DNA from: Bacteroidota bacterium
GTDB lineage: Bacteria; Bacteroidota; Bacteroidia; Chitinophagales; Chitinophagaceae
Direction of reading: 5' to 3'
NCBI GenBank assembly: GCA_028876495.1
Contig: JAGWRO010000090.1
Coordinates: forward strand, 28,557-92,556
Length of the DNA: 64,000 bases
This document shows, piece after piece, positions 1,740 through 28,062 of this stretch. The notes beneath the pieces are model-generated. The model was not told the origin of the DNA and ran no database searches. It saw only the letters and a program-made list of their open reading frames with translations. A program made the position numbers and the translations under genes. Numbering within the stretch: position 1 is the first letter of the stretch; every line of letters begins with the position of its first letter.

Positions 1740-2510
1740 TTATTTTTTGTTATGAACGAGCCTGTAGTAGATATATTGCCAAAGAGTAGGATGATACCAG
1801 AGTTTACTTTCTAAATTATTTTGCTTCAAGGTCAGAGAATTATTGAAAATATCTTTTACTGCTTTTTTCATATAAATAATACCTTCAGCCAACTGAAGCA
1901 ATGGGTAAGTTGAAAAATTGTCTTTTGGGGTAATGGTAATTTTTTGTTGATAGATAATTTTTCCGGTATCAATTCCTTCATCCACTAAATGAACAGTAAC
2001 TCCGCAATTTTCCATATCATTATTTACAATTGCCCAATAGCCCCCATGCACATTTCGGTATTTAGGAGTAATGCCTGCGTGGATGTTTACAAATTTAACA
2101 GGAACTGCTTTTAAAACCTCTTTAGAAATGATCCGCGTTCCGTTCACGATTACCATCTCAGGTTTTATTTTTTGTAAAAGGGAAATACATTCACCACTAT
2201 TTACAGATGGCACACCTATTACTTTTTCTGCCGGTAGTGGCGTATCCTGCAAACCATATTTTTCCAAAATTTCTTTCTTTCTTTTTGAAGAAGCCAGGTT
2301 TAAAAATTTAGCAACCGACAGCTGAAATAAAATTTGCCCAACTACTTTCCAAATGCCAAGTGTTTTTATTCTTTTTCTTAAGAATTCTTTCATTGAAACC
2401 GGGCTTTCAAGAATGATGGCTTCAATATCAAATTCATCTTTCAAAGAATTATAGAGAACACTTGTGCTAAGGCCTTTACGGGCCAACAAGATTAATCTGT
2501 GCTTACTCAT
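1740..2510 (-). CDS. Formyltransferase (N10-formyl-THF dependent), probably sugar/polysaccharide modifying
   Basis: VNIHAGITPKYR and HLVDEGIDTG carry the Asn-His-Asp catalytic triad of the formyltransferase fold; lies in a polysaccharide locus. Confidence 0.85.
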   Translation of the reverse strand: MSKHRLILLARKGLSTSVLYNSLKDEFDIEAIILESPVSMKEFLRKRIKTLGIWKVVGQILFQLSVAKFLNLASSKRKKEILEKYGLQDTPLPAEKVIGVPSVNSGECISLLQKIKPEMVIVNGTRIISKEVLKAVPVKFVNIHAGITPKYRNVHGGYWAIVNNDMENCGVTVHLVDEGIDTGKIIYQQKITITPKDNFSTYPLLQLAEGIIYMKKAVKDIFNNSLTLKQNNLESKLWYHPTLWQYIYYRLVHNKK

Positions 2511-3480
2511 TATTTAATTCTTTTGCTAATTGCCGCATACTTAAGCTTTCAAAATTAAATTCACTGTTTAATTTCTTATAATGAATTAAAATTTTTTCCA
2601 AAAAAGAAAAGTTTTCCTGGATGTTATTTCCAAAATTATGAGGATGCCACCATAAATGATACACAAGGCCTTTTTTTGCAGCGTAACCCATACTATCAGT
2701 TATTCTCTTTAAACGTAAGTTTTCAAATGCCTTTAATTTTTTTGAGTAGGGCCTTAAAAATCTGCTTGACGGAATATTTAATATCACCTGGTCTTTCATT
2801 TCCTCTGATGAATAACAATTTTTTCCACTTAGATTCAAGTAGGAGTCTAATAAACGAAAGGGCCTTCTTAGAAAATTATCAGCACCAAAACTTTCTGAAG
2901 AAAATAACCATGATTTTTCATTTCCACGGTAACAAGTAAATCCCAATTCCCGGCAAACGTTTAAATAATCTTTATTGTATTGATTTCTCGGAAAAACAAA
3001 ACTCTTTAGTTCTATGCCATTTTTTTGTGCCATTTTTTTGGCTGCTATCAGGTCTTCCTTAAATTCTTCTTTTGTCTGACCTTTTTCAAGACAATAATAA
3101 TGAGAGAAAGTGTGTGAACCGATTTCCTGGTCATTGTTCACAATTTGCTGAATCAGGCTACTTGCAAAATGAAATGGATCAACTTTTTCATTTTCTCCCA
3201 CTGAATCAAAATGGTTGGTGTATGGTGAGAGTTTTGCATTTTTGTATTCAGGTTTTTTATTTGGCAGATTTTTAAGAAGTTCTTCTTTTGTATTGAAAAA
3301 TAAAAATCCAACGGTTGCAAAAGTTGCTTGAATATCATATTGTTTGAACAAGTCTAATAATAAAGGAATTACTTTTTGTACACCCAAAAGATGTTCTCCG
3401 TATTGCTTTAGCGTAACTGCGTCGCGTACTCCCCAGTAGATTTCAAAATCAAGTGAAATAACTAATTTTCCGTTTGCCAT
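2503..3480 (-). CDS. Polysaccharide deacetylase family protein (NodB/CE4-like)
   Basis: ISLDFE, ATFATVG, EIGSHTFSHYY metal-binding His pair, FVFPRN and HLWWHPHN. Overlaps the formyltransferase start by 8 nt. Confidence 0.85.
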   Translation of the reverse strand: MANGKLVISLDFEIYWGVRDAVTLKQYGEHLLGVQKVIPLLLDLFKQYDIQATFATVGFLFFNTKEELLKNLPNKKPEYKNAKLSPYTNHFDSVGENEKVDPFHFASSLIQQIVNNDQEIGSHTFSHYYCLEKGQTKEEFKEDLIAAKKMAQKNGIELKSFVFPRNQYNKDYLNVCRELGFTCYRGNEKSWLFSSESFGADNFLRRPFRLLDSYLNLSGKNCYSSEEMKDQVILNIPSSRFLRPYSKKLKAFENLRLKRITDSMGYAAKKGLVYHLWWHPHNFGNNIQENFSFLEKILIHYKKLNSEFNFESLSMRQLAKELNNE

Positions 3481-3562
3481 TTCAACAATATTAATTGAAA
3501 AAAATGATTTCTATTATTTAAATAAACTTATTTTGTCCTACTGAAAAGCCTGAAAGTTGAAT

Positions 3563-4465
3563 ATGAAAAGTGAATTTACAAGAAGCCCCGAAAGAATCAT
3601 CAAAACAAAGAAAAGGGAAATTTTTATTTTTGATATTGAAGGAAAAAATATAGATCAAAAAGTAGTAAATGAATTCGGGGATGAGTGGTTAAAGTTTTAT
3701 GAGCATGATGATGACCTGGTAAAGAAAGGAGGAGAAGAATACTTTGATATTCTTACCGACCAAATGATAAATGCAAATTCGTATGTGCTTGATATTGGCT
3801 GTGGAACGGGAAGGTGGACAAAATATCTTGCAGGCAAAGTTGGCTTTATAGAGGCTGTTGATCCGAGTAACGCTATTTTTGCTGCAGATAAATTACTGGG
3901 AAAAATAGAAAATGTACGATTATTAAAAGCATCAATTGAAACTCTACCTTTTGCCGACGAAACTTTTGATTTTGTAATGAGTATTGGGGTATTACATCAC
4001 ATACCCAACACTCGCCAGGCTTTAATAGATTGTGTAAAAAAAGTAAAAAAGGGAGGATATTTTTTCGTTTACTTATATTATAATTTAGATAGAAGAGGGC
4101 CGCTTTATAAAGCGTTATTTCATTCAAGCGATTTGATAAGAAAAGCCGTGAGCAGGCTTCCCGGAAAAATTAAGCATTTTGTGTGCGACGGTTTAGCGAT
4201 CATTTTTTATATGCCTTTTATTTTAGTTGGAAGGTTTTTTAAATTTTTGGGATTTACAGATTTGGCAAAAAGAATGCCGTTACATGGTTATCAAAACCGT
4301 TCGTTTTTCATGATACGAAATGATACTTTAGATCGTTTTGGAACAAGACTCGAACAGCGATTCTCTAAAAAGGAAGTTATTGAAATGATGGAGGCGGCGG
4401 GATTAACTAATATTGTAATAAGCCCCGGAATTCCATATTATCATGCCGTTGGAAAGAAGAAATAA
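3563..4465 (+). CDS. Class I SAM-dependent methyltransferase, inverted within the locus
   Basis: VLDIGCGTGRW motif I, EAVD, LPFADETFDFV..GVLHH. ATG 3563 preferred over TTG 3557. Confidence 0.85.
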   Translation: MKSEFTRSPERIIKTKKREIFIFDIEGKNIDQKVVNEFGDEWLKFYEHDDDLVKKGGEEYFDILTDQMINANSYVLDIGCGTGRWTKYLAGKVGFIEAVDPSNAIFAADKLLGKIENVRLLKASIETLPFADETFDFVMSIGVLHHIPNTRQALIDCVKKVKKGGYFFVYLYYNLDRRGPLYKALFHSSDLIRKAVSRLPGKIKHFVCDGLAIIFYMPFILVGRFFKFLGFTDLAKRMPLHGYQNRSFFMIRNDTLDRFGTRLEQRFSKKEVIEMMEAAGLTNIVISPGIPYYHAVGKKK

Positions 4466-4547: not shown

Positions 4548-5774
4548 TTATGCTAAAATTTGATTGTAAATTTTACGATACTTTTCAATGGCATTATCAA
4601 GATTGTAAAATTCCCCGGCTGCATTTCTGATTTCATTTTGATTAAAATTGATCCTTTTAGAGATTTGGCTAACCGCTGATTGATATTCTGATTGATTTAA
4701 GTCTTTCAATACAATTCCGGATTGATATTTTTCAACTATATATGCTACATCTCCAACGCCGGCATTGGTTATTACGGGAATTCCCATTGCCATAATTTCT
4801 CCATGTTTGGTAGGAGAAGAAGATTGTTTTGAATAACATGGCTTTATAAAAAAGGCAGAAAAGTTACTTAAGGATAAAAGTCCTGGAATTTCGTTTCTTT
4901 TTGCCTTCCTGAGAATTATTTTATCTTGTTGTAAGCCGAATTTATTTGCTTTCTTGCTTATAGTATTATGTTCATTAGGAGAGATAAATAAAAATTTTGC
5001 ATTTGGAATATGATCACTGATAATTTTAAAAAACTGCATCATTTCATCTATGAGATACCAACTTCCGATTGAACCAAGATAGCTGATTATAAAATCGCTG
5101 TCATTAATATTCAACTCAGATTTCAATTTTGATTTTTGGAAAGTATCAATTTTTTCCGGATCAAATAAATTCATATCAACACTACAGGGAATCACTTCTA
5201 CAGGGATTTCATTTTTATATAGAGACCATCCTTTTATTATTTTTTCTGCAACATAAGTAAGGCAAACAATTCCGTTACTGTTTTCAACTTCTTCTTTTTC
5301 TTTTCTTTTAAAAAAATCGTAAATTTTTTTGTGGAAAAAATTCGTTTTATGCCAGATGTTACCATCTAAGCGGCTGTCGGCATAAAACTCCCTGATATCA
5401 TTTAAAAATTTAAGGCCAAATTTTTTCTTCATCCATAAGCCAATCAATGCAGGGATTCCTGGCCTGGTATGAACTATATCGAATTTTTCTTTTGAATGAA
5501 GTTTTCGTGCTTTTTTCTTTAATTGAAAAACATCATATATGGTAGAAAACACCAGAGGGTTTTTATGATAGGAAATGGGAACCCATTTTATTGAAAATGA
5601 TTCTAAAAGATTTTCAATTTCATTCCTATGTAAAGAATAATTTTTTGGTTTCTCGCAACTTAAAATGGTAAACCTGTATCCAAACTTTGTTAGCCCTGCC
5701 AGGTAAGGTATTACCTGGCTTTGACCAAGTGGATCAGTCATGCCATCATAAGATATGAAAAGTATATTCGGCAT
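4548..5774 (-). CDS. GT4 family glycosyltransferase
   Basis: GT-B C-terminal SSPTKHGEIMAMGIPVITN and YLGSIGSWY. Confidence 0.85.
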   Translation of the reverse strand: MPNILFISYDGMTDPLGQSQVIPYLAGLTKFGYRFTILSCEKPKNYSLHRNEIENLLESFSIKWVPISYHKNPLVFSTIYDVFQLKKKARKLHSKEKFDIVHTRPGIPALIGLWMKKKFGLKFLNDIREFYADSRLDGNIWHKTNFFHKKIYDFFKRKEKEEVENSNGIVCLTYVAEKIIKGWSLYKNEIPVEVIPCSVDMNLFDPEKIDTFQKSKLKSELNINDSDFIISYLGSIGSWYLIDEMMQFFKIISDHIPNAKFLFISPNEHNTISKKANKFGLQQDKIILRKAKRNEIPGLLSLSNFSAFFIKPCYSKQSSSPTKHGEIMAMGIPVITNAGVGDVAYIVEKYQSGIVLKDLNQSEYQSAVSQISKRINFNQNEIRNAAGEFYNLDNAIEKYRKIYNQILA

Positions 5775-5787
5775 TTAGAATTAAATA

Positions 5788-6876
5788 TTATTGCGCAGTT
5801 TGCAAAATTGAATCGTAAATATTGAAAAGTTTTTTTAGATAAATTTCTTTGGTGTATTTTTTTGAAATTCTTATTCCATTTTTTGAAATTTCATTCAAAT
5901 CATATTTCTTTTCCAAAATTGATTTGATTAAATCAGAGAAAGAGATGGGATTGCTCACATCAAAAAATAAAGCATTTTCCATAGTAATTTCATGGTAAAC
6001 CGGCAAGTCAGATAATAATAAAGGAATGCCTGTTGCCATTGCTTCCACTGAGGCTATTCCAAAACCTTCGTGTTTGGAACAAGAAACATATAAATCATAA
6101 TCAGTAAGCAATTCATGTAAGTTATTTACAGGCCCTTTAAAAATAATTGCCAAGTTATTTTTTTCAATTTCGTTTCTCAGTATTTCAAAATCTATTCGAT
6201 TGCCTTGCCCATAAACATCTAAAGAAACCTTGTAATCTTTTAAATAACTAAAGGCACTTACAAGATAGGCGTAGTTTTTTGTTTTCTTTAAATTGCCAAC
6301 AGCAATTAGTTTTAATTTTTGAAGGCCATTATAATCCTTTTCATATTTATTTTCGCAAAAAAATAAATTTGAGATATAATTTTTTAAAACAAAAGAGTTG
6401 ATATTCTTCGCAATAGTTTTTTCATAATCTTTCAACACAGCATTAGAAACTGCAATTACCGAATGATTTTTTTTTATAGTTTTTTTCTCTAAAAAGGTGA
6501 GTAGTTTACTATTATTAAAAACATTTTTACTCATTTCACCATGTAAGGAGTAAACTAAAGGAACACTTGAAGGGCAAGCCAACCGGGCAATTAAACTACT
6601 ATAAAACAAATGAGAATGGATAATTGATGGCCGATGGTTTTTTATTATTTTTTTTAATTTCCAGATGCTGGAGATCAAATAAAAATTGCTTTTGAAGCCC
6701 AATGAATATCTTTTTTTGCATTCAATTTCTTCTATGAAATCGCATTCTGCCGATAACGTAACAAGAGTTACTTCAAAAATTTTATTCAGGTCATGAAGAA
6801 TTCCGGTTAATAATATTTCAGCGCCTCCTTTTTTTAAATTATCAATAACTATAAGTAGTGAGGTTTTGCATTTCAT
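5788..6876 (-). CDS. GT4 family glycosyltransferase
   Basis: GGAE N-terminal motif, VGNLKKTKN, EGFGIASVEAMATGIP (EX7E). Confidence 0.9.
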   Translation of the reverse strand: MKCKTSLLIVIDNLKKGGAEILLTGILHDLNKIFEVTLVTLSAECDFIEEIECKKRYSLGFKSNFYLISSIWKLKKIIKNHRPSIIHSHLFYSSLIARLACPSSVPLVYSLHGEMSKNVFNNSKLLTFLEKKTIKKNHSVIAVSNAVLKDYEKTIAKNINSFVLKNYISNLFFCENKYEKDYNGLQKLKLIAVGNLKKTKNYAYLVSAFSYLKDYKVSLDVYGQGNRIDFEILRNEIEKNNLAIIFKGPVNNLHELLTDYDLYVSCSKHEGFGIASVEAMATGIPLLLSDLPVYHEITMENALFFDVSNPISFSDLIKSILEKKYDLNEISKNGIRISKKYTKEIYLKKLFNIYDSILQTAQ

Positions 6877-9074: not shown

Positions 9075-10319
9075 CTATGATTTTAATTTATTCTTCATTA
9101 ATACCCACATCAAAATCCAATAAAGTAAATAATTAATACAAAACGAATAAGTAGCGCCAATTATTCCATATTGATCCATAAAATAATAAGATAAGGCTAC
9201 ATAAGTAGCAGCAAATATAATTTCGGTGGCGATATAGGCTCTTGTCATAGCTTTTGCGATCATTAAATAGCCTAACAACCAACTTCCAATTTTAAAAAAA
9301 TCACCCAATAATTGATAGGTAAATAGCGGTTTCATTGGCAAAAATTCCGGGGTAAATAAAATGTGAATGATCAGATCTTTAAACAACCAAATTAAAAAGG
9401 CGATAGCTCCCACTATCGGCAAAATAATTTTGTAACCACCCATGATTTCATGCCTTAATTCGGCCTTACTTTTTAATTCTGATAACCTTGGCATGTAATA
9501 AACTCCCAATACTGAAGTAATGAATCCTAAATAATAATCAGAGATTTTTGTGACAGCCTGCCAGTAACCTGCATCCGCTACCGAAAATTGAAGTATAATT
9601 CTATCTCTTACCAATATTTGCATGGTAGGTATCACGAAACCACTTACGATTGCCATCAATGAAAAACCAGAAAGCATTTTGACAACTCGATTATCCCATG
9701 ATTTAAAATCAGGCTTCCATCTTATTCCTAGTTTATTAAAAAAATAAATATTTATAAGAAAAACAACAATAGCGGTGGCGGTGCTTGCTATTAAAACCCC
9801 TTTTAAACCAAAAGTATAAGCAAAAATTACTGTAATAGTTACACCCGTTAATGAAGAGCAAATATTGGCAATGGTAAATTTCCTTATTTCTTTTAATCCA
9901 TTTAAAATGGCTGAAAACATTACATTGAAAGAAATTGCCATGGTAAATAATCCAAATAAAAAATAGACGATCCAGAAATTTTTTGTCTTGAAAGCCGCTT
10001 CAGATAAATAACCGCTGGTGCTTATCACAAATAAAGAAATAATCAACGAACTAAAAAAGACAATAAGAAAGGCAGTATTAATGATTTGTTTTCTTTTTTC
10101 GGGATCACTTTTATGTTCGGCCAGGTATTTAATTACGCCTGTAGAAATAGCAGCGGTTGCCAGCATAGTTAAGATAGCGGTAGTATTTTGAAACTGTCCA
10201 ACAAAAGCAATTCCTTTCGGTCCTATTTTTACAGCTACTACTTTTACAACAATAAAGCCACTGATAAAAGTAATAGCTGTAGAAATAGAAGTATAAAAAC
10301 TGGTTTTTAGTAAGTTCAC
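9075..10319 (-). CDS. wzx: O-antigen/oligosaccharide flippase (WzxE-like translocase)
   Basis: Multi-TM protein with [25 protein letters not shown] and GDFFKIGSW. Start refined to GTG 10319, which overlaps the upstream TGA as GTGA. Confidence 0.88.
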
Positions 10320-11431
10320 TTGAAGCAGTTTATGACTTTGCAAACCACTTCAACATCTGCCTGTTTCATCACTTGGCTAATTGGTAATGAAATAATTTGC
10401 TCATGAATTTTTTCAGATATGGGATAAGAGTCATTGTTCCATTCGGAATAGGCTTTCTGTTTATGTGGAGGAATTGGGTAATGAATTACAGTCTGAATAC
10501 CGTTCTCTGTCAGATACTTTTGGAATTTTTCTCTTTCTTCGACTCTCACTGCAAAAACATGCCATACATTAGAATCTAAATCTTCAATATTTGTTTGTTT
10601 ACTGTAGGGCAATACTATTAAATTGTTTTTTATATTATGGATATAATAGTGAGCAATTTTTCGCCTGAAGGAATTATCCAGATTAAGGTTTTTTAATTTG
10701 ATAGATAAAAACGCTGCCTGAATTTCATCGAGTCGGCTATTTATTCCTTTATAAATATTTTCGTATTTTTTATGAGATCCATAATTGCGCAAAGCAGTTA
10801 TGGTTTCTGCAAGTTTATCATCATTGGTTGTAACAGCACCACCATCACCAAGTGCACCGAGGTTTTTGCCGGGATAAAAACTAAAACCCGCTGCATCTGC
10901 GAGATTGCCACACATAATGCTATTGAATTTTGCTCCATGAGATTGAGCGCAATCTTCAATCACCTTAAGATTGTATTTTTTTGCAATGATATTAATAGCA
11001 TCCATATTGCAAAGTCTTCCATATAAATGCACTGGTAAAATTGCTTTGGTTTTTGAAGTGATTTTTTCTTCAATTAAATTTTCATCTATCAAAAAAGTTG
11101 AAATGGTTGGCTCTACTAAAACTGGAATCAGGCCTGCTTTTGAAATAGCGAGTATGGTTGCAATGTACGTATTGGAGGGAACGATCACCTCGTCACCATT
11201 ATTTATATTTCCTAATTCTTTATATCCTTCAAGAATTAAAATCAAAGCATCTAAGCCATTGGCAACGCCAATACAATTTTTAACGTTGCAGAACTCAGCA
11301 AATTCTTTCTCAAATTTTTTTACATTTTCTCCTAAAATAAACCAGCCGGCATCCAAAAGTTTTTCGAACTCCCGCATGAACTCTTTATTATCTCTCTTAT
11401 TAATTCCTTTAATATTTAAAAATTCAATCAT
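10316..11431 (-). CDS. DegT/DnrJ/EryC1/StrS PLP aminotransferase (FdtB/QdtB-like)
   Basis: [39 protein letters not shown] (PLP lysine) and [10 protein letters not shown]. Follows the isomerase and acetyltransferase genes. Confidence 0.92.
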
Positions 11432-11439
11432 TTAACTAT

Positions 11440-11913
11440 TTATTTATTCTGATTTTCGTCAGTCCTTCCAATAACTTTCGCAGGATTTCCATAAACTAAG
11501 GTAAATGGCTGTATATTCTTTGTAACTACGCTTCCAGCGCCTATCATAGCATATTCACCAATCGTAACGCCACCAAGAATTGTTGCGTTAGCTCCGATGG
11601 AAGCTCCTTTGGCAATATGGGTTGTCTGAAATAGTTCGGGATATTTTTTTGACCTTGGATATTTGTCATTTACAAAAGTAACATTGGGGCCAATAAAAAC
11701 ATCATCCTCGATTCTTAGTCCATCCCAAATGAAGACGCCTGGTTTTACAGTTACCCTGTCACCAATTATAACATCATTTTCAATAAATGTATGGCAATTG
11801 ATATTACAATTTTTCCCCACGATTGCTTTTGGTAAGATAACAGCAAATTGCCAAATGGTAGTTCCTTCACCTATCTGAGTTGATTGCACATCAGCTAATG
11901 GATGAATCTTCAT
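11440..11913 (-). CDS. Hexapeptide-repeat N-acetyltransferase (FdtC/QdtC/WxcM-like)
   Basis: [21 protein letters not shown], left-handed beta-helix repeats, [18 protein letters not shown]. Confidence 0.9.
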
Positions 11914-12311
11914 GATAATTTTTTAAATTCTTCGTAATCTCTTATATAGTCACTCATTTCATAAGGCATATTTGCAATGCACATCTGTACGGCATTGTGG
12001 CTGTATTGCATTTTATGCCAGCAATATTTTGGCAGAAAGATTCCCTGGTCGGCAGTTTCTAAAATAAACCATTGTTCATCTTCGCCAGGCATTTGCGTTG
12101 TAACAATTATTTTGCCTGCTACAGCTACTAAAATTTGTTCCAGGTGGTGGTGGGCATGTCCTCCACGATTTATACTTTCAGGAGTAAAATAAGTCCAGTA
12201 AACCCTTTTAACTTCAAAAGGCAACGTTTCTTTTTCTGCTACAGAAATGTAACCTTCAATAGTTTTACCAATTTTAGGAAAGTTCATTAGCCTGGGGGTT
12301 TCGTAAATCAT
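11910..12311 (-). CDS. dTDP-4-keto-6-deoxyglucose 3,4-ketoisomerase (FdtA/QdtA cupin)
   Basis: PFEVKRVYW and RGGHAHH catalytic His pair. ATGA overlap with the next gene. Confidence 0.9.
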
Positions 12312-12626: not shown

Positions 12627-12654
12627 AACTGAGTATATACTAAATGAATTGTTT

Positions 12655-13707
12655 ATGAATTTCAGGGAATTAAAAATTGGCTATGTTCCTTATCTGCCAG
12701 ATCTATCGCAGCCGGCAGACAGAAGGAGATTCCCTTTTTTTGCAAAAACCAATGGGATACCATTTGAAATCGCTGATGAAAATAAACCTTATGATGTTAT
12801 TTTATTGACTGCTCCTGCCAACCTTACCCAATGGCTTTATTACAAAAGGAAAAATCCTTCAACCAAATTTATTTTTGAAATGGTTGACAGTTTGATTCTT
12901 CCTTCTGATACTTTTAGTGATTTATTTAAAGGGATTGGCCGGTATATTATTGGGAAAGAAAAGAAGCTTACTCTCAATTTCAGGCACCTGTTAATCGAAT
13001 GGATTAAAGTATCAGATCTCGTTATTTGTTCGAGTAGTGAAATAAAACGAATTATTGAGCAGTGGAATAAAAACGTGGTGATAAGCCTGGACTATTTGCA
13101 AAACGAAATTAAGACGTGTAAAGATGATTACCATATAAGCGGTAAAATGAAATTAGTTTGGGAAGGGCAGAGTGTTGTTGCGCGACATCTGTTGGATTTT
13201 AAGGAGGTTTTTAAACAAGTAAATTCTTTTTGTGAACTTCATATAATTACTGATAAAAAATTTCCTTCATATGGAAATCTGATCAATCGTGAGGTAAATA
13301 ATATTTTAAAAGAATTGCCTATAGAGACAGTTTTTCACCCTTGGGAAATTTATAAAAACTACGAAATGCTTATACAATGTGACTGCGGTATTATCCCTTT
13401 GAATAAAAAAAACAAAATGGCCTGGCATAAGCCTGCTAACAAACTAATTTCGTTTTGGTTTGCAGGCCTTCCTACTTTAGTTTCAGATACTCCGGCTTAT
13501 ATCGAATTTATGGAAGCAGCTAATTCTAAAATGTATTGCAGAAACACGGATGAATGGGTATCAAAAATAAAAGAAATAATGAGTATATCTGCTGAAGAAA
13601 GAAAAGTAAATGCGCTACAAAATTTAAGCTTTGTTAAGCAACATTATTCAAATGAAGCCATCTCATCAACCTGGTTTGAGGTTTTTAACATGATAAATGT
13701 GTCCTAA
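12655..13707 (+). CDS. Atypical GT-B fold glycosyltransferase (GT4-like), inverted within the locus
   Basis: C-terminal CDCGIIPL..HKPANKLISFWFAGLPTLVSD resembles the GT4 nucleotide-sugar binding region but has no EX7E. Confidence 0.65.
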   Translation: MNFRELKIGYVPYLPDLSQPADRRRFPFFAKTNGIPFEIADENKPYDVILLTAPANLTQWLYYKRKNPSTKFIFEMVDSLILPSDTFSDLFKGIGRYIIGKEKKLTLNFRHLLIEWIKVSDLVICSSSEIKRIIEQWNKNVVISLDYLQNEIKTCKDDYHISGKMKLVWEGQSVVARHLLDFKEVFKQVNSFCELHIITDKKFPSYGNLINREVNNILKELPIETVFHPWEIYKNYEMLIQCDCGIIPLNKKNKMAWHKPANKLISFWFAGLPTLVSDTPAYIEFMEAANSKMYCRNTDEWVSKIKEIMSISAEERKVNALQNLSFVKQHYSNEAISSTWFEVFNMINVS

Positions 13708-13761: not shown

Positions 13762-14691
13762 CTATATGCCTTTTGATTTCGAATTTTGATTATTTGCTTT
13801 CCTTATGAACAATGTATAGCCTATGAACACAGTTTTTATTTCTTTAAACCTTCCTGAAAGCAAAAGAAAAAATGTTCGTGTAAAAGGTTCAATAAAATAA
13901 GTGCCAAACCAAACCAGCCAATAACCACTGGTTGTAAAATGTTTTCGGGCATATTGTAATCTGCTCCGCAAATTCAAAAAAAGCCGAAAAGCCTTCACAG
14001 CTTTGGTGGTTCCTTCGCCGCTATGAATTGCAACGATATCTGTATTAAAAAATGATTTTCCACCAAGGTTATGTAATCTTTTTGAAAAATCTAACTCTTC
14101 ACAATACACAAAGAAACGTTCGTCAAAATACCCCACTTTTTCAAAAATTGAATACCTCATAAACATAAAAGCGCCCATTACCTGATCGACATATCTACTG
14201 GTTTTATGATCCCAATCAGACATTAAAATAGCTGGTGTAAAAACTTTTGGAAAAACTTTTGAGAAGCCGACGGAGTCCATAAATAATTTTAGAGGAGTTG
14301 GGAACCGTGCACAACTTGAGGACGTTTCACCTTCATCATTCAACAGTCTGCAACCCAGAATATCTGTTTCAGGATGCCTTTCCATAAAAGCAATACAATC
14401 TTTTAATGTGGTATCTAATAATTGTGTGTCTGGGTTAAGTAAAAGAACGTATGGTGATTTTGACAAAAGAAAACCTTGGTTGGATGCTTTTGCAAATCCC
14501 TTGTTTTCGTTATTTCTTATGATTTGAATCTTATCGTTTGGTAAAATGTTTTTGACGGATAAATCACTGGAACTATTATCAATAATAAAAACCATATTTA
14601 CAAAACGTTCATTAGAATTAGAAAATATTGAAGTAATACATTTCTCCAAATAATTACCACTGTTCCAGTTTACTATTATAATATCTGTCAT
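13762..14691 (-). CDS. GT2 family glycosyltransferase (WbbL/rhamnosyltransferase-like)
   Basis: DIIIVNWNS, IIDNSSSD, LLNPDT, GAFMFMR, FFVYCEELD. Confidence 0.88.
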   Translation of the reverse strand: MTDIIIVNWNSGNYLEKCITSIFSNSNERFVNMVFIIDNSSSDLSVKNILPNDKIQIIRNNENKGFAKASNQGFLLSKSPYVLLLNPDTQLLDTTLKDCIAFMERHPETDILGCRLLNDEGETSSSCARFPTPLKLFMDSVGFSKVFPKVFTPAILMSDWDHKTSRYVDQVMGAFMFMRYSIFEKVGYFDERFFVYCEELDFSKRLHNLGGKSFFNTDIVAIHSGEGTTKAVKAFRLFLNLRSRLQYARKHFTTSGYWLVWFGTYFIEPFTRTFFLLLSGRFKEIKTVFIGYTLFIRKANNQNSKSKGI

Positions 14692-15965
14692 TTTGGAGAA
14701 ACAAAAAATTTATTTAAAAATAAGATTCCTTCAAAGTAAATAACAACCTGTAACCAGGTTGAAAATAAAGACAAATATTGATCCTGGAAAAAGCTCATAA
14801 ATAAAGGGAATAATAAAAAAGAAAAATAGACGGTGTACCTTATACTTTTTGCAGAGATAGCCTTGAGGTAAATAAAAGTATGAATGAAACCAAAAACAAA
14901 CAACATAAACCATGCATAGAAGTTTCCGAAGTCTTTTATATAAGGGCTGTAGATGGTGTATACATTAGTGGGATAGGGTACAAAAACAAAGGGCTGCGTT
15001 AATTCTTCAACTTTTGCATTTGGGACCCATTTTAATTGTTCAGCAATCTTCATGAAAAATCGTAAAGAGTGATTACCATCGTAATTAATCTGAAAATGAT
15101 GATGCCTTTCCCATTCAAGAGCATTTAACGGAGAAACCAGGTAAACAGCAGTTGTTTCAGCAGCTGGTTTTATATTTTCTTTTAATGTATTTTTTTCGCT
15201 TCCTCCTTTACCATACATTATGCCGATTGCAATAAAAACCAGCATGAAAAAAATCAACAGATAAAATATTTTTTTAACTGAAAAGTTTTTATTAAGCAGA
15301 TAAGAGAGGCCTAAATAAATAAGCACCAGTTCTAAAAACAAACCACGTCCTGTAACAAAAACAGCGTAGGTAATAGATATTAATAAATTAGCTATTAACA
15401 AGATCCCATTCAATCTGTTTTTTTCCGTAAGGTAACAATACAAGTTAACGGCAAAAATTACATAAGAGAATGAAACGAGGTATTTTAAAGGGCCGATATC
15501 TTCACTACCGTATGAAAGCTCGGTCCTTAATCCCACGAAGAAATTATCAATATTGGAAGCAAGAAAAACGCGATAGGCTGCCTGAATATAAAATGGTAAC
15601 CCTACCGCAATAATAACAAGAAGTATAATTCTTAGCGCAAGATTTATATTCGATTGCCCGCTACAGGCAGGCGTAATTTCTGTATTTTTTTTTTGCCAGA
15701 TGATTGTTTGAACGAAGCCACCAAAACTAAAAGCCAACGTTCCAATAAAGAAAATAAGAAAGGTAGAGGTGCTTAAAGGAAATAAGTCAGGAAGAATAGT
15801 AAGTTTAAAAATAAAGTGTAACAACAATACCGTAAACCAAATGAGCGAAAACAAAACAGCAGGATGCATTATTTTCTTTTTCATTATTTGATAATTTGCC
15901 ACAAATAATAAAAATTGCAGAAAGATAAAGCTCAATTCAATTAAGATGTTATTTAAATCATGCAT
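14688..15965 (-). CDS. wzy: O-antigen/oligosaccharide repeat-unit polymerase
   Basis: About 10 TM segments, TGRG motif, periplasmic loop ending in PTNVYTIYSPYIKDFG; adjacent to a flippase. Confidence 0.8.
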   Translation of the reverse strand: MHDLNNILIELSFIFLQFLLFVANYQIMKKKIMHPAVLFSLIWFTVLLLHFIFKLTILPDLFPLSTSTFLIFFIGTLAFSFGGFVQTIIWQKKNTEITPACSGQSNINLALRIILLVIIAVGLPFYIQAAYRVFLASNIDNFFVGLRTELSYGSEDIGPLKYLVSFSYVIFAVNLYCYLTEKNRLNGILLIANLLISITYAVFVTGRGLFLELVLIYLGLSYLLNKNFSVKKIFYLLIFFMLVFIAIGIMYGKGGSEKNTLKENIKPAAETTAVYLVSPLNALEWERHHHFQINYDGNHSLRFFMKIAEQLKWVPNAKVEELTQPFVFVPYPTNVYTIYSPYIKDFGNFYAWFMLFVFGFIHTFIYLKAISAKSIRYTVYFSFLLFPLFMSFFQDQYLSLFSTWLQVVIYFEGILFLNKFFVSPK

Positions 15966-15979
15966 GAATAATTTTGTTA

Positions 15980-17269
15980 CTACATTTTAAGGTTTATGAA
16001 TTTTGGTTTTCTGCTGAATGATCTTGAAAATGATATTAATTCAGAAAACGATATTAATAAAAGATAAACAAAAGCTGATAATAAAAATCCTGCAGGATAA
16101 ACCAAAATGTTATTGTTGCTTTTAAACAGAAAGTAAAATATAAGTTGTATAGTAAAGGCGATAACAACCATTGCAAGTAAGAAAAAACTATTAAGCTTTA
16201 ATTCAAAACGTTTTTGCGCAAGAATAGCCAATTGCCAAATGAAGGTTCCGCAAATCACAATAAATCCCATCAGTCTAAAAGTTTCTGTATTTGGGGTTTT
16301 TAAAATTAAGCGTAACAGATCGGCACCAAACCACCAATATAAAATGCTTGCAACAGTAAATCCACTTATTTCAAAGATTATTATTTTTTTTATGAATTTT
16401 CTTATTTCAGTTTTATTGCCTCTTTCATAGGCCGACGTTAAAATCGGAAACAATGAAGTAACTACAGGTGAAATAATTAATGTAATACCTCTGAATAGTA
16501 AATCAAAAATAGCCTGGTAGTTACCTTGCGCTTCCGCACCTTCATATTTAAACATAAATAGTTTATCTGCATAGGAAATCAGGTAAGAAAATAAAAACCA
16601 TAACGAAAGCGGTGCTCCGTATTTGAAAAATTTTTTAAACAATAGTATCTTTTCAAGTGTTGTATTTAACTCAAAATCTTCTTCTTTAAAAAATTGCAAC
16701 GCCTTTTTTATTAAAAAAAACAGGGAAAAAAGATACGAAGAAAAAACAGCGATAAATAATGAGTAAAGGTAACTTAGGCCAGAAAATTTTAGAAGTAAAA
16801 CGGCACCTCCAACATATGTGGTTACTCTTATGATTTCTGACAAGATTATTTTTCTGGATAAGAAGCTTGACTGAATGATAGGTAAAATGGTGAATTGCAG
16901 TGAAGTGGCGAATAAAACAAGCGACGTCAGTAAGGCTAAAAGCAAATCGTGTCCTACATAAAAAGCTACGATGAAAACAGGGACAAAGAAGATGCCTTGG
17001 GTTTTAAGCGAAAGAATAATAGCCTGTCTTGAAAATGAACGTTTATTGGTACTGGCAGGAAAAAACCTGATGATGCTTTGTGCGATCCATCCGGATAAAA
17101 TTGCAGTAGCAATTAAAATAGCATTAAACCAGATTGAAAATTTGCCATATCCTTTTGCACCTAATAAGTTTTTAAAAACTGGTATGGATAAAGCGGAAAT
17201 AAATGAAGGTAAAATAATGCTAATGAGGTAATTGAAATAATCTTTCTTAAATTTTGAAAATAAATCCAT
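15980..17269 (-). CDS. Second Wzx-like polysaccharide flippase
   Basis: Multi-TM MOP-family pattern: LGAKGYGKFSIW, YGAPL, ADKLFM, GNYQAIFD. Confidence 0.78.
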   Translation of the reverse strand: MDLFSKFKKDYFNYLISIILPSFISALSIPVFKNLLGAKGYGKFSIWFNAILIATAILSGWIAQSIIRFFPASTNKRSFSRQAIILSLKTQGIFFVPVFIVAFYVGHDLLLALLTSLVLFATSLQFTILPIIQSSFLSRKIILSEIIRVTTYVGGAVLLLKFSGLSYLYSLFIAVFSSYLFSLFFLIKKALQFFKEEDFELNTTLEKILLFKKFFKYGAPLSLWFLFSYLISYADKLFMFKYEGAEAQGNYQAIFDLLFRGITLIISPVVTSLFPILTSAYERGNKTEIRKFIKKIIIFEISGFTVASILYWWFGADLLRLILKTPNTETFRLMGFIVICGTFIWQLAILAQKRFELKLNSFFLLAMVVIAFTIQLIFYFLFKSNNNILVYPAGFLLSAFVYLLLISFSELISFSRSFSRKPKFINLKM

Positions 17270-21040: not shown

Positions 21041-22537
21041 ATGAAAAGAATTATATTTAATTTCTTGTTCTTTTTTCTGTTACTTAATGCAAAAGGATCA
21101 AATATTTTAAATGTAAAAGATTTTGGAGCTAAAGGTGATGGCGTTACTGATGATACAAAAGCTATACAATCAGCTATTGACATTGCTTCTCCTGATTCAA
21201 ATACTATTATTTATTTCCCGAAAGGGATTTATATTATTGGTTCATACACAACTACGTCCAACTATCTTGAAAATTATTGTCTGAAGCTCCATTCGAATTT
21301 ATCTTTTAGAGGAACAGGTGATGCATCTTTAATTAAGCTTGCTGATCATTTATTTGATAAAATGGATACTTCGGCATGTGCGCATATGTTTTATGGTTCA
21401 GAAACTATGAATATTAGTTTTTCGAATCTACTCATAGATATGAATGGAAGTAAAAATCTTGTACCTCCAAATATTATTAAAAACAATTCAGCCATTTTTG
21501 CCATAAATGCGAAAAACTTTCACCTCGTTAATTTAACCATTAAAAATTGTTCGGGAACCAATATGATTAATTTAATGGGAGAAGGGCAAAAATTACTTAT
21601 CGAAAAGTGCAGATTTATTAACGGAGGTAACTTTGTTGGAAGTTCTCAACCTAACAAAAACCAAGTTGATTTTTCTTTCATTTACAGTGAATGGAGCAGT
21701 ACTATTATACGAGATAATATTATTCAACAGCAAAACATAAACCTTGCTCTTGAAAATTATTCTGGTGGAATAGAAATGCACGGAAGTAATTCATCTGCTT
21801 TCGGCAATCATATAGAAGGATGCTGGCCAGCTATATATATCACAAGCAGCAGGAGTGTATTAAGGAATATTGCAGTTAAGAATAACAGCCTGATAAACTG
21901 CGTTACCGGTATTTCTTTTTGGATAGTTTTTCCTATGGAGAATATAGTAGTTGCGAATAATATTATGCACCTTACCCATGCCAGGAGTTCTAAAAACGAT
22001 TTTTGTGCCGGGATAAGGATTCCTAATGGAAACGTAAAAGAATATAATAGCAATCTAGCTAATGCTGCCCCTGTTTACAATCTTCAAATTTCGGGAAACA
22101 CAATTCAAGCAGATTCTATGAAAACTTTATCTATGGGAATGTTGTTGCATTCATTACATCAAAGTAAAATTTATGGAAATACAATAAGAAAAATGAACTA
22201 CGGAGGAGTCGTCCTACAAGGAAGCAAATGGGGAATTGATTCGCTTTATATAGACCACAACACTTTTTCTGATTTCAGGGAAAATACTCATCAATCCGCT
22301 GTCGCCGGCTACATTGTAATTACGGATATTTATTCAAAGGGAATAAAAGATGCATTGGGTATTAAAAAAGTAGTTGTAAGTAATAACATGTTTGTTGGAA
22401 ACCCTGAGAAGAAAAAAACAAAAAACTTTTATGGTGCTTTCATTGCTCTTCCATCAAATATGAGAAATGCGATAAAATTTACAAATAATAAATTCACCAA
22501 CAAAAATGATAAGATTCAATTTATAGAAACGAATTAG
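21041..22537 (+). CDS. Secreted right-handed parallel beta-helix protein (pectate lyase 3 / GH28-related), inverted within the locus
   Basis: Signal peptide, then [32 protein letters not shown] and Asn/Ile-rich PbH1-type repeats. 3' end overlaps the convergent gene by 4 nt. Confidence 0.85.
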
Positions 22538-23382
22538 TCTATAATTTTTTTAAGCTTTGATGTGCTTCCCCAAAAACTCATTGGTTCATAATCGGGATAA
22601 GCATAAAAACCTCTATTTAATTCTATTGATTGTCGCTTTTCTTTTAGATAATTTTCAACCAATTTATTGATGGTTAACGGAACACCACTGCAGCAATTAA
22701 TAATGCCTGTTTCCTGTTTTTGCAGTGCAATTTTTACAATGTATTCAGCAACCTTTTCTACCGGTAAATAATCTCTTTGCTGTTCACCCTTGCTCATCTT
22801 AAATTCTTTCTCTCCTTTTTTTAACGCCCCTTCTAACTGGGCAAGAATAGAATTAGGATTCTGCCCGTGCCCATACATATAAAATAACCTCGGCCACTTT
22901 AAATCAAAAGGGTATTTTTTTTGAAGTTCTTCTAAAAACTTTCTTAATGAATCTTTGGCTATTGAATAAGGATTTTCAGGGCATGGCATCATTTCTTCAG
23001 ATAACATGCCTTCCTGTAACCCATATTCCATACATGTTCCGCTAACCGTAATATCTTTTGCACCGTTAATAACCAGGTTTTTTAAAAATGTATAATGCCT
23101 GAATAAATTTTCTTCAATATGGAATAAAGATTTATAATTGGGCAACCCTTCCCACGCTAAATGAATTACAATGTCGGGAGCATCAAAATATTGAAAAAAG
23201 TCAATCTCTTCTTGTAATTGAGATAAATCAAGGTCATGATATTTGACCTCGTTAAACCAGGGAAATACTTTCGCTTTTTCAGGATGCAGGGAACTGGCAA
23301 TTACCATATGATCATTTTTCAACAATTCAGTTACGACATAGTTTCCGATAAATCCAGTGGCGCCGGTTACAAGAACTTTCAT
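22534..23382 (-). CDS. NAD-dependent epimerase/dehydratase family, probable NDP-4-keto-sugar reductase
   Basis: [26 protein letters not shown] (YxxxK), RDYLPV. Confidence 0.85.
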
Positions 23383-23384
23383 AA

Positions 23385-24611
23385 TTAAAAAATTTCTAAA
23401 ACGGGAATAGCGGTAACAAATTTACCATTCCAGTTCCTGATATAACTTAATTGCTCACTTATTTCTTCCTTTAAATTCCATGGAAGAATTAACACATAAT
23501 CCGGAATATGATTCTTTAAAAATTGTTCGTCTACTACAGGAATATGGCTTCCCGGTAGGAATTTATTTTGTTTATGCGGGTTGGCATCTACAACGTATTC
23601 GATAAGGTCACTTTTTATTCCACAATAATTAAGCAATGTATTTCCTTTTGCTGCTGCACCATAAGCCGCAACTCTTTTCCTTTCATTCTTTTTATCGAGC
23701 AAAAAAGTAGTTAATGCTAATTTTATCTGTAATGCTTTTTCCGTAAAATGGCGGTAATAGTTAAGGTCAGTGATTCCCTTGTGATTTTCCTTTTCTAATA
23801 GTAAACCAACATTTTTCGAGATTTCTTTATTTGTGTCTTCCCGGTGTTTTGCATAAATCCTGATAGAACCTCCATGAGTTGAAATTTCATCTACATCAAA
23901 GATTTCCAATTTTTGTGATTCAAAAATTTTCTTAACTGTATGCAACGACAAGTAAGAAAAATGTTCGTGATAAATGGTATCGAATTGATTGTTTTCAATC
24001 AGTTGCATTAAATGGGGAAATTCCATGGTGATAACGCCATCATCTTTCAATACTAATTTTAATCCTGTCACAAAATCAACAATATCAGGAACGTGGGCCA
24101 ATACATTATTTCCTATCAGAAGATCAGCCTTAATATTTTTTGAAACCATTTCCTTTGCCAGCTTTGTTCCAAAAAATTCGTTAATCGATTCAATTCCTTT
24201 TTGTTTTGCCACATCAGAAGTGTTTTTTGCCGGTTCAACTCCCAAAACCGGTACTTTCTTTTCTTTAAAATATTGCAACAAATACCCATCATTGGAAGCG
24301 ATTTCTATTATTTGTGAATTTTCATTATATCCAAAGCGGCCCATCATCATTTCTGTATACTTTTTTGCATGGGCAAGCCAAGCGGAACTATAAGAAGAGA
24401 AATAAGCGTACTGATGTGAGAAAATATCTTCTGTTTTTTTGTACTCGTCAATTTGCACCAGGAAACATTTCGGGCAGGTAAAAACTTTTAATGGAAAATA
24501 CGTTTCAGGTTCATTCAATTCTTCTTTGGATAAAAAAGAATTCGATGCCGGTGAATTAAACAGGTCAATGAATAAATGAGTTAATTCTGTTTTGCAAAAC
24601 CTGCATTTCAT
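23385..24611 (-). CDS. NDP-hexose C-methyltransferase
   Basis: Zn-binding CRFC..CPKC, EIASNDGYLL, HEHFSY, THGGS, YGAAAKGNTLLN. Confidence 0.9.
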   Translation of the reverse strand: MKCRFCKTELTHLFIDLFNSPASNSFLSKEELNEPETYFPLKVFTCPKCFLVQIDEYKKTEDIFSHQYAYFSSYSSAWLAHAKKYTEMMMGRFGYNENSQIIEIASNDGYLLQYFKEKKVPVLGVEPAKNTSDVAKQKGIESINEFFGTKLAKEMVSKNIKADLLIGNNVLAHVPDIVDFVTGLKLVLKDDGVITMEFPHLMQLIENNQFDTIYHEHFSYLSLHTVKKIFESQKLEIFDVDEISTHGGSIRIYAKHREDTNKEISKNVGLLLEKENHKGITDLNYYRHFTEKALQIKLALTTFLLDKKNERKRVAAYGAAAKGNTLLNYCGIKSDLIEYVVDANPHKQNKFLPGSHIPVVDEQFLKNHIPDYVLILPWNLKEEISEQLSYIRNWNGKFVTAIPVLEIF

Positions 24612-25159
24612 ATTATTATTCCTTTAAAATTTTCTGGCAGTTTCGGAAGATTTTTATCCCTATGCGAAATCATTTCAATTGCTTCAGGCCATTCTATTTT
24701 TACAGCCGGATCCTGGTAATTAATTCCATCCTCATAAGAAGGCGTATAAAAATTAGTGTGATGGTAAATAATTTCACAATCATTGGTAAGCGTGAGAAAG
24801 CCGTGTGCACAACCTTCAGGTATATAAATCATTTTTTTATTTTCTGCACTTAGTTCAACGCCGAACCATTTTAAAAAAGAAGGAGAATTTTTTCTCAGAT
24901 CGATTGCCACATCAAAAATTTTTCCGGCAATACAACGAATCAGTTTTATTTCAGCATTGGGAGGATTTTGAAAATGCATACCACGAAGCGTTCCTTTTTC
25001 TTTTGTAAAGGAATGATTTATTTGAACCCATTCTTTGTCATGGCCAATTTTTTTAAATTCATCTTTACAAAAAGTGCGTGCAAACCAACCACGATTATCT
25101 TCATGCGGGATCACTTCAATTTCGTAACATCCTTCTAATTTGGTTTCTTTGAAATTCAC
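24608..25159 (-). CDS. rfbC: NDP-4-keto-6-deoxyhexose 3,5-epimerase (RmlC/RfbC family)
   Basis: DNRGWFARTF, LRGMHFQ, DVAIDLRKNSPSF, IPEGCAHGF. Confidence 0.92.
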   Translation of the reverse strand: MNFKETKLEGCYEIEVIPHEDNRGWFARTFCKDEFKKIGHDKEWVQINHSFTKEKGTLRGMHFQNPPNAEIKLIRCIAGKIFDVAIDLRKNSPSFLKWFGVELSAENKKMIYIPEGCAHGFLTLTNDCEIIYHHTNFYTPSYEDGINYQDPAVKIEWPEAIEMISHRDKNLPKLPENFKGIII

Positions 25160-26244
25160 AATTCCAAATATTTTTGAATTTGATAGAAAGTAAATTCTTT
25201 TTGAGTTTCAGCAGATTTTTTATACCAGTCTATCGTCCATTCAATTGCTGTTGCAGCGGGCAGTAAAGGTTTCCAGTTTAAAACCTCCAGGGATTTATTA
25301 ATATTTAATTTCAGCAACTTCGCTTCATGCGGAGCATTATCTTCTGAAATAATTTCGTAAGAGCCACTGTTCCAAATCCCAATTGCTTTTTCTACTAATT
25401 CTTTTACTGAATAGGTATCATTTTCAAGCGGACCAAAATTCCATCCACCGGAATATTTTTCAGGTAAATTATGAAGGTTCTGCGCCAGATAAAGGTATCC
25501 AAACAATGGATCTAAAACATGTTGCCACGGGCGAATAGAATTAGGATTTCTGATGGGGATTTTTTGATTCTTTTGGAGCGCTTTCACAATGTCGGCAACA
25601 ATCCTGTCATTAGACCAATCGCCTCCTCCAATAACATTTCCTGCCCTGGCCGTCGCAATCGCCATATTGTGTACGCCGATATTTTTCAAGTTGAAATACG
25701 ATTCACGGTATGAATTGGTGACAATTTCCGCAGCCGCTTTACTTGCACTGTATGGATCGCAACCTCCTATTCTGTCCAATTCTTTATAAGCATAATCCTG
25801 GTCTGTATTTTCGTAGACTTTGTCTGTTGTAACGATAATTACAGAACATTTTTTGTCCAGATAACGGCACGCATTTAAGACATTTGCGGTTCCGATAGTA
25901 TTCACCTTGAAGGTTTCGAGGGGATGAGCATACGAATAGCGTACGAGAGGTTGAGCAGCAAGATGAAAGATAATATCAGGAGCAAAATCGATAATTTCTT
26001 CCTGCAATTTTTTTTCGTCTCTTATATCGTGTATAACTGACTTGCAGAGTCGGTCATCATTATTTACAATTGAATAGAGATTGGTAAAATGCGATGGAGC
26101 GAGTGCATAACCTTTGACCCTGGAGTTAAAAGTTTTTAGAATAGACAATAGCCAGCTTCCTTTAAATCCTGTATGGCCGGTAACAAAAACTTTTTTATCG
26201 CTGAAAAATTCAGCAAGTGTTTTTTTATTTACCATGTTTTCCAT
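25156..26244 (-). CDS. rfbG: CDP-glucose 4,6-dehydratase
   Basis: VTGHTGFKGSWL, HLAAQPLVRYSY, TTDKVYEN, YSASKAA, RAGNVIGGGDW, RPWQHVL. Start MENMV at 26244 preferred. Confidence 0.95.
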   Translation of the reverse strand: MENMVNKKTLAEFFSDKKVFVTGHTGFKGSWLLSILKTFNSRVKGYALAPSHFTNLYSIVNNDDRLCKSVIHDIRDEKKLQEEIIDFAPDIIFHLAAQPLVRYSYAHPLETFKVNTIGTANVLNACRYLDKKCSVIIVTTDKVYENTDQDYAYKELDRIGGCDPYSASKAAAEIVTNSYRESYFNLKNIGVHNMAIATARAGNVIGGGDWSNDRIVADIVKALQKNQKIPIRNPNSIRPWQHVLDPLFGYLYLAQNLHNLPEKYSGGWNFGPLENDTYSVKELVEKAIGIWNSGSYEIISEDNAPHEAKLLKLNINKSLEVLNWKPLLPAATAIEWTIDWYKKSAETQKEFTFYQIQKYLEL

Positions 26245-28059: not shown

Positions 28060-28062
28060 GAA

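Follow-up and report, generated by a model that had tools for sequence, protein, structure and literature searches.

Several surface polysaccharides of bacteria owe antigenic determinants to N-formylated sugars, and to our knowledge all the characterised routes to such sugars formylate the product of a transaminase while it is nucleotide-linked. In the rhizobial Nod factor NodB exposes the amine of a GlcNAc residue, and NodA and NodS then N-acylate and N-methylate it, respectively; the LpxC/LpxD and MshB/MshC pairs follow the same deacetylate-then-substitute logic. HfsH, which serves the holdfast of Caulobacter, is a cytoplasmic CE4 enzyme without signal peptide, encoded in a Wzx/Wzy locus and thought to act before export; we know of no re-acylating partner for it. 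The only characterised system that, as far as we know, joins a sugar N-formyltransferase with a CE4-fold amidase is the Arn pathway, through the N-terminal domain of ArnA and through ArnD. In the Wbp/Vim pathway of Porphyromonas gingivalis and Tannerella forsythia, which includes VimE, VimA, WbpS and VimF, the proposal is that a diacetamido-uronic sugar first loses its 2-N-acetyl group through the CE4 protein VimE and then receives Ser/Gly from the FemAB-like VimA (PMC7468200). Here we describe two overlapping genes, one for a CE4/NodB-type deacetylase (DA) and one for a formyltransferase (FT), in a 64,000-nucleotide stretch of a Chitinophagaceae genome (contig JAGWRO010000090.1 of assembly GCA_028876495.1; G000:C79:28557-92556), which as a whole is called the window throughout. 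On the strength of their sequences and gene neighbourhoods, we think that they probably form a two-step N-acyl exchange cassette, acting in the cytoplasm while a surface polysaccharide of the Wzx/Wzy type is assembled.

As in the VimE/VimA system, DA appears to be a cytoplasmic CE4 deacetylase beside a gene whose product would re-substitute the amine, and the pair is accompanied by GT4 glycosyltransferases and by an AsnB-type amidotransferase (WbpS there, an AsnB/WbpS-like protein here). The two systems differ in the second enzyme, which is of the folate-dependent formyltransferase type here and a FemAB-like aminoacyl transferase there, and there is no evident tie here to the anchoring of type IX secretion cargo. 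DA was also considered as a VimE orthologue, an identity ruled out by the VimE model NF053580 (cut-off 440 bits), which does not match DA even at E <= 1. With respect to NodB, NodA and NodS, the acylation and methylation of the Nod factor parallel the alternative partners of DA described below, and a methyltransferase gene lies beside the pair; however, DA matches the NodB model weakly, with 19 bits where the cut-off is 240, and the Nod acceptor is a free chitooligosaccharide that receives a fatty acyl chain. HfsH shares with DA the absence of a signal peptide and the setting in a Wzx/Wzy-type locus, and the NCBIfam HfsH model gives a faint match to DA (E 0.075), but with HfsH the amine stays free. 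Searches of the literature for a characterised deacetylase-then-formyltransferase route, or for 2-formamido sugars, gave nothing relevant beyond the Arn pathway. An earlier interpretation of this DNA, made without database searches (the sequence-only reading), had stated that no characterised example of such a route was known: this agrees with the searched literature as far as a deacetylase followed by a formyltransferase is concerned, whereas for other acyl groups such a logic is already established or proposed, as in VimE/VimA, NodB/NodA/NodS, LpxC/LpxD and MshB/MshC. The new element would be the formyltransferase as second enzyme of a deacetylate-then-redecorate logic.

In the first step of the mechanism that we propose, the metal-dependent DA would hydrolyse the N-acetyl group of an acetamido sugar, as its fold and conserved residues indicate. 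The most likely substrate would be a hexose or hexuronic acid with a 2-acetamido group, made from UDP-GlcNAc. This guess asks for the fewest assumptions, since such a sugar receives its acetyl group before it is activated with a nucleotide, and only deacetylation then makes a replacement possible. The carrier could be a nucleotide or, as the fusion partners of DA suggest, the undecaprenyl-diphosphate-linked repeat unit. In the second step FT would formylate the freed amine with N10-formyl-tetrahydrofolate, yielding a formamido sugar. The gene overlap in the window, or protein fusion elsewhere, would keep the two activities together, perhaps with direct hand-over of the free-amine intermediate. 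Seen more broadly, the cassette may be one version of a general means of diversifying N-substituents, in which the second enzyme is a formyltransferase, a GNAT/FemAB-like acyl- or aminoacyl-transferase, or a methyltransferase.

The reading frames of DA and FT share 8 nucleotides (ATGAGTAA), such that the ATG of FT sits within the final codons of DA, an arrangement that on sequence grounds is read as translational coupling. Both this overlap (2503-2510) and the intact Asn-His-Asp triad of FT had been recognized in the sequence-only reading. DA matches PF01522 Polysacc_deac_1 (E 6.6e-12; 45.9 bits vs a cut-off of 23.1) and also DUF2334, and its AlphaFold2 (AF2) model (pLDDT 94.7) has the (beta/alpha)-barrel of the CE4 family, to which profile and fold together assign it. 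The whole chain aligns to many CE4 structures at Z 15-25, nearest to the cytoplasmic PuuE/HpPgdA-type group (3rxz, Z 24.9; 3qbu, Z 23.8). The segment H123-T-F-S-H127 lines up with HSYSH of 7y51, which is the canonical H-S-x-x-H metal motif of CE4 enzymes; in a set of 69 homologues H123, H127, H275, H279 and H281 are invariant, D11, E13 and R165 are conserved in at least 90%, and a WWHPH motif is retained. The metal-binding and catalytic motifs of CE4 enzymes are therefore present in DA, but motif 1 is D-x-E instead of D-D. The peak hydropathy of DA over 19 residues is 0.97, and scans of both sequences found neither a signal peptide nor a transmembrane segment in DA or FT.

FT belongs to PF00551 Formyl_trans_N (E 8.6e-21; 74.9 bits vs a cut-off of 26.1), as judged from the profile match and from the triad N142, H144 and D181, which is in register with that of WlaRD and PurN and invariant in 43 homologues. 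Its sequence matches in the PDB include PurN, WlaRD, FdtF, QdtF, WbkC and ArnA, and the best Foldseek matches of its AF2 model (pLDDT 93.6) are the N-terminal domain of ArnA, Fmt and WbkC, with TM about 0.6. In both sequence and fold the resemblance to nucleotide-sugar N-formyltransferases is at the superfamily level only; the VioF-type model PRK07579, for example, gives 44.9 bits against a cut-off of 238. With WlaRD, FdtF, QdtF, WbkC, VioF and WbtJ the protein shares the catalytic core, the triad and a role in surface polysaccharides, but those enzymes act on transaminase-made 3- or 4-amino nucleotide sugars, have no paired deacetylase, and lack an insertion that is specific to the FT family. 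This insertion of about 50 residues (approximately 37-90), absent from the solved formyltransferases, forms three helices in the model (40-51, 53-73 and 75-84) and contains five positions, R47, G52, G58, Q59 and F62, that do not vary among the 43 homologues. Helix 53-73 is hydrophobic (hydropathy 1.2-1.3) and has basic helices on both sides, with values under the thresholds for transmembrane segments; one may speculate that it is compatible with association of FT with the membrane.

Each of the two proteins has thousands of homologues, many of them in Chitinophagaceae metagenomes. We examined 80 loci with homologues of DA (46-71% identity), most of them from Bacteroidota and the others from Bacillota, Cyanobacteriota, Acidobacteriota and Pseudomonadota, whose neighbourhoods were defined by our own calling of open reading frames (ORFs) and by protein clustering. 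FT lies directly downstream of DA on the same strand in 48 of the 80; since 4 of the 32 loci without FT end too early to be judged, this corresponds to 48 of 76 informative loci. The co-occurrence across Bacteroidota loci that had been put forward as a check on the sequence-only reading is thus borne out. The junction between the two genes measures −4 to +81 nucleotides in 47 of these 48 loci and 168 nucleotides in the remaining one, and overall such recurrence greatly exceeds what chance would produce. Cultured strains with the pair include Pricia antarctica DSM 23421 (L024), Niabella drilacis DSM 25811 (L051), Hymenobacter norwichensis DSM 15439 (L037), Chryseobacterium sp. Leaf394 (L033) and Peribacillus frigoritolerans (L026). 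Of 401 evenly sampled Bacteroidota genomes, 7 had FT and 10 had DA, with the two adjacent in 5 (once in reverse order); such a rare and patchy distribution points to a mobile accessory cassette and not to a lineage-wide trait.

The 28 informative loci in which DA occurs without FT show what can take its place. Three kinds of gene occupy the slot: a GNAT-type protein (clusters c28 and GNAT36, homologous to each other with an hhalign probability of 96.8%); in Bacillota, a FemAB-like protein, c17 (FemAB E 2.4e-6; an aminoacyl-tRNA-dependent peptide synthase/FemX in the PDB); and a methyltransferase (L010, L021, L048). Two Chitinophagaceae cassettes match the window gene by gene except in the FT slot, which is empty in L004 and holds the methyltransferase in L021. 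On a tree of DA sequences (a quick IQ-TREE run) the type of partner requires at least 7 well-supported switches, and sister DAs can have different partners, as in L031 (GNAT) and L036 (FT). DA is thus the constant element, and the second enzyme a putative amine-modifying activity that is exchangeable, a pattern that fits a DA that exposes an amine for its partner and not one that removes the group added by the partner.

A search of longer proteins recovered DA and FT in a single chain, in six fusion clusters and in both domain orders: P0244 is DA(1-325)-FT(333-583), with 52% and 50% identity to the DA and FT of the window, and P0318 is an FT-DA fusion. These fusions argue for consecutive reactions. 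With adjacency, fusions and partner swaps, the genetic coupling of an editing pair is in place, and we infer that DA and FT act consecutively on one amine. DA is also fused to GT4 glycosyltransferases (about 50 clusters), to GT2 glycosyltransferases, and to Wzx flippases (4 clusters), which places it at the cytoplasmic face of the membrane and, as far as domain composition can tell, suggests a lipid-linked substrate. The absence of signal peptides and transmembrane segments, together with fusion partners that belong to the cytoplasmic face or are Wzx flippases, points in turn to editing before export.

Some further chains join DA to sulfatase-type (LtaS/EptA-like) and phosphosulfolactate-synthase-like domains; P0255, P0258, P0261, P0278, P0289, P0298 and P0301 are sulfatase-type, phosphosulfolactate-synthase-like or Wzx fusions. 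Judging from these sequences, the range of architectures is wide for one CE4 subfamily.

For the origin of the amine, the co-occurrence of sugar genes was counted in the 28 loci that hold the pair and have full flanks. A homologue of FdtA is found in only 1 of them, a DegT aminotransferase in 13 and an AsnB/WbpS-like gene in 15, and the first two of these counts fit an amine exposed by deacetylation rather than one made by a transaminase. The third, together with genome G084 (L107), in which a WbpA/B/D/E-like set lies 1.5-7 kb from the DA-FT pair, is a hint of an amino-uronic acid substrate. The diacetamido-uronic acid of the Wbp pathway was considered as a specific candidate and not adopted, because a WbpB-like gene occurs near DA in 1 of the 80 loci only. 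The sequence-only reading had proposed that the pair could remove and replace the N-acyl group after synthesis, or give mixed acetyl/formyl decoration, and had linked it to the 3-amino-3,6-dideoxyhexose made in the same locus. The core of this proposal, one module that exchanges an N-acyl group, is supported by adjacency, overlap, fusions in both orders and exchanged partners, but neither the timing nor the substrate is. The former conflicts with the lack of export signals in both proteins and with the fusions of DA to Wzx and to enzymes of the cytoplasmic face. As to the latter, the genes for the 3-amino sugar and its acetyltransferase are indeed present (10316-12311) and would constitute a dTDP-3-acetamido-3,6-dideoxyhexose route; yet, as the FdtA and DegT counts indicate, they share the locus with the pair in the window and are unlinked to it across genomes.

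The same counts bear on the alternative that DA and FT catalyse two independent steps and merely share an operon, FT formylating dTDP-Fuc3N/Qui3N so that a mixed acetyl/formyl decoration results, and DA deacetylating some other residue. Such a scheme draws on the FdtA, FdtB and acetyltransferase genes of the window, on the presence of the 3-N-formyltransferases WlaRD, FdtF and QdtF among the solved structures matched by FT, and on two genomes, G291 and G380, in which FT occurs alone; but FdtA accompanies the pair in a single full-flank locus, the adjacency outlasts transfer between phyla and between gene clusters of widely differing make-up, unrelated steps would hardly account for fusions in both orders, and the conserved insertion of FT is absent from the characterised nucleotide-sugar formyltransferases. 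We therefore regard independent steps as rather unlikely.

Less probable again, in our judgement, is a protection scheme of the Arn kind, in which FT would formylate a transaminase-made nucleotide sugar, a glycosyltransferase would move the sugar to a lipid, and DA would then deformylate it to give a free amine. The fold of FT is closest to the N-terminal formyltransferase domain of ArnA, DA shares the CE4 fold with ArnD (8t0j, Z 17.2), both proteins appear cytoplasmic, a DegT aminotransferase is encoded in the locus, and the literature in which the two types of enzyme are mentioned together all concerns the Arn pathway. The order of events in that pathway is nevertheless the reverse of the one proposed here (formylation, transfer, deformylation), with an amine supplied by ArnB and a need for ArnC and ArnT, and the locus does not support it. 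DA occurs without FT in 28 of the 76 informative loci, accompanied by acyltransferases or a methyltransferase instead, and a DA-FT fusion, in whichever order, would join a formyl-adding and a formyl-removing activity in one chain. The GT2 enzyme encoded near the pair (3-473) resembles chondroitin-synthase/GalT1-type GT-A enzymes and not ArnC/DPM1; no ArnT-like or GT-C family was detected in the locus, where a 458-residue membrane protein described below looks Wzy-like; and fewer than half of the pair-bearing full-flank loci have a DegT gene. An ArnD-type deformylase was tried as an identity for DA and ruled out: the NCBIfam ArnD model gives no match to DA, ArnD ranks only 25th among its fold matches, about 8 Z units under the top value of 24.9, and the gene context is not that of an Arn operon. 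A third possibility, that DA is an O-acetyl esterase or another amide hydrolase engaged with FT in a different two-step chemistry, can appeal to the acetylxylan esterases of the CE4 family and to the allantoinase PuuE in the closest fold group, but has a slim chance at best, since the partners in the FT slot are all of amine-modifying kinds (formyl-, acyl/aminoacyl- and methyl-transferases) and DA has invariantly both of the metal-binding histidines that, as far as we know, PuuE-type enzymes lack.

Several points also weigh against the exchange cassette as we propose it. FT is present without DA in 2 of the 7 FT-bearing genomes of the even sample (G291 and G380), and the loci compared are kin, mostly from one phylum, so that our counts overstate the number of independent cases. 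CE4 enzymes may also be O-deacetylases or, like ArnD, deformylases. The nearest solved relatives of FT use transaminase-made nucleotide-linked amino sugars, tRNA-bound methionine or glycinamide ribonucleotide (GAR), and we know of none that accepts a deacetylation product; moreover, the window holds a transaminase route to a 3-amino sugar that could in principle feed FT directly. The parallel with VimE/VimA, finally, is one of logic and not of orthology, as the lack of a match to NF053580 makes clear. With these points taken into account, the exchange cassette remains our preferred reading. A more far-reaching version of it, which we offer only tentatively, is that this pair makes formamido sugars from precursors of the UDP-GlcNAc/GalNAc type, for which a route has been missing. 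FT would then be the first member of its superfamily to use the amine left by a deacetylase, perhaps on a lipid-linked repeat unit at the membrane, and would belong to a general plug-in system in which a single conserved deacetylase and exchangeable formyl-, aminoacyl-, acyl- or methyl-transferases diversify surface glycans across phyla. If this were true, a route coupled to a deacetylase would account for the origin of 2-formamido sugars, and it would provide an annotation rule for thousands of genes that are labelled just 'polysaccharide deacetylase' or 'formyl transferase'. Its constant deacetylase and interchangeable second enzyme would also make it a modular means of editing, usable in glycoengineering. 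Natural fusions such as P0244 and P0318 are convenient biochemical objects.

The pair sits in a large glycan region, whose description in the sequence-only reading was correct. In the order of transcription the region starts with dTDP-sugar genes, WbpB/WbpD-like genes, a C-methyl-sugar set, Wza, Wzz and a first Wzx/Wzy; it continues with FdtA, the acetyltransferase, FdtB, a second Wzx, two GT2, two GT4 and the divergent methyltransferase; and its last part within the window comprises DA, FT, Glf and a GT2. Past the window start follow a polytopic membrane protein, the AsnB/WbpS-like amidotransferase (366 bits to eps_aminotran_1) and a final GT4, and then a sigma-factor gene marks the end of the locus. 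The polytopic protein (458 residues; L084:16646-18022) has at least 7 hydrophobic segments and no Pfam, NCBIfam or PDB match, a combination that makes it probably a second Wzy polymerase. The features closest to the pair and those of the 3-amino sugar route are listed in Table 1.

Table 1. The DA-FT pair and surrounding features, in window coordinates.
Feature	Position	Strand	Remarks
GT2 glycosyltransferase, N-terminal part	3-473	minus	332 residues in full; extends beyond the window start
UDP-galactopyranose mutase (Glf)	570-1727	minus	PF03275, E 1.1e-73; first gene downstream of the pair
FT, N10-formyl-tetrahydrofolate-type formyltransferase	1740-2510	minus	256 residues, P0002
Overlap of DA stop and FT start	2503-2510	minus	8 nucleotides, ATGAGTAA
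DA, CE4/NodB-type deacetylase	2503-3480	minus	325 residues, P0001
S-adenosylmethionine (SAM) methyltransferase (cluster 10)	3557-4465	plus	PF08241; divergent
GT4 glycosyltransferase (cluster 7)	4548-5774	minus	conserved upstream of the pair in Chitinophagaceae cassettes
GT4 glycosyltransferase (cluster 1)	5788-6876	minus	family abuts DA directly in other loci
Wzx-type flippase of the pair's gene set	9075-10343	minus	PF01943
FdtB-like DegT aminotransferase	10316-11431	minus	
FdtC-like hexapeptide N-acetyltransferase	11440-11913	minus	
FdtA-type isomerase	11910-12311	minus	PF05523

Some of these neighbours are retained in related loci. The position of Glf is kept in L001, L002 and L006-L008. The cluster 10 methyltransferase, which begins 76 nucleotides from the start of DA, adjoins DA in the same orientation in 15 related loci, among them L001, L002, L003, L005 and L007; it is thus a conserved neighbour and not a one-off insertion, and it may have a role in the module. 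A GT4 gene is found immediately upstream of DA, at −3 to +6 nucleotides, in L022, L029, L031 and L057. Elsewhere the surroundings vary. In five Chitinophaga-type loci (L040, L050, L062, L069, L070) a second formyltransferase of 235 residues without the insertion (cluster 14) is encoded about 6-8 kb downstream of DA, next to a PglD-like acetyltransferase and a UDP-sugar dehydrogenase; with the DA-FT pair, these loci have two formyltransferases each. In the Flavobacteriales loci L038, L064, L067, L068 and L074 an Amidohydro_3 protein (578-925 residues) abuts the start of DA whether or not FT is present, the gap being 8-19 nucleotides in the three loci measured (L067, L068, L074). A succinylglutamate-desuccinylase/aspartoacylase-like gene overlaps the DA stop in L068.

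Farther along the window, a flippase (15980-17269) and a polymerase (14688-15965; TIGR04370) stand behind Wza/Wzz, in tandem with a second set that comprises the flippase at 9075-10343 and the 458-residue polytopic protein just past the window start, and this duplication of Wzx/Wzy sets suggests that two polysaccharide gene sets are joined end to end. The run of minus-strand genes is broken at 12649-13707 by a plus-strand ORF of 352 residues, which has no Pfam or NCBIfam match and belongs to a family (cluster 23) also present in L004 and L034. A scan for sigma-70 promoters and terminators was uninformative, promoter-like sites being fewer than in shuffled sequence. The minus-strand genes at 22534-27005 encode a C-methyltransferase (PF08484/PF08421), an NDP-hexose dehydratase, a nucleotidyltransferase, a 3,5-epimerase and a reductase, and by their sequences indicate a pathway to a branched-chain or C-methyl deoxysugar. 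Beyond them on the same strand, 25 kb from the pair, are a WbpB-like GFO/IDH/MocA oxidoreductase and a WbpD-like hexapeptide acetyltransferase (27160-28635), the latter 63% identical to that of genome G084; the WbpE/WbpA-like genes of the source genome are on another contig (C78, about 200-202.5 kb). A third contig of this genome encodes a VimE-like protein of 435 residues (G000:C27:78245-79552; L116:5246-6553), which scores 156 bits with NF053580, under the cut-off of 440, and has kdsA before it and two GT4-like genes after it; it may belong to a separate linking-sugar pathway of the Wbp/Vim kind.

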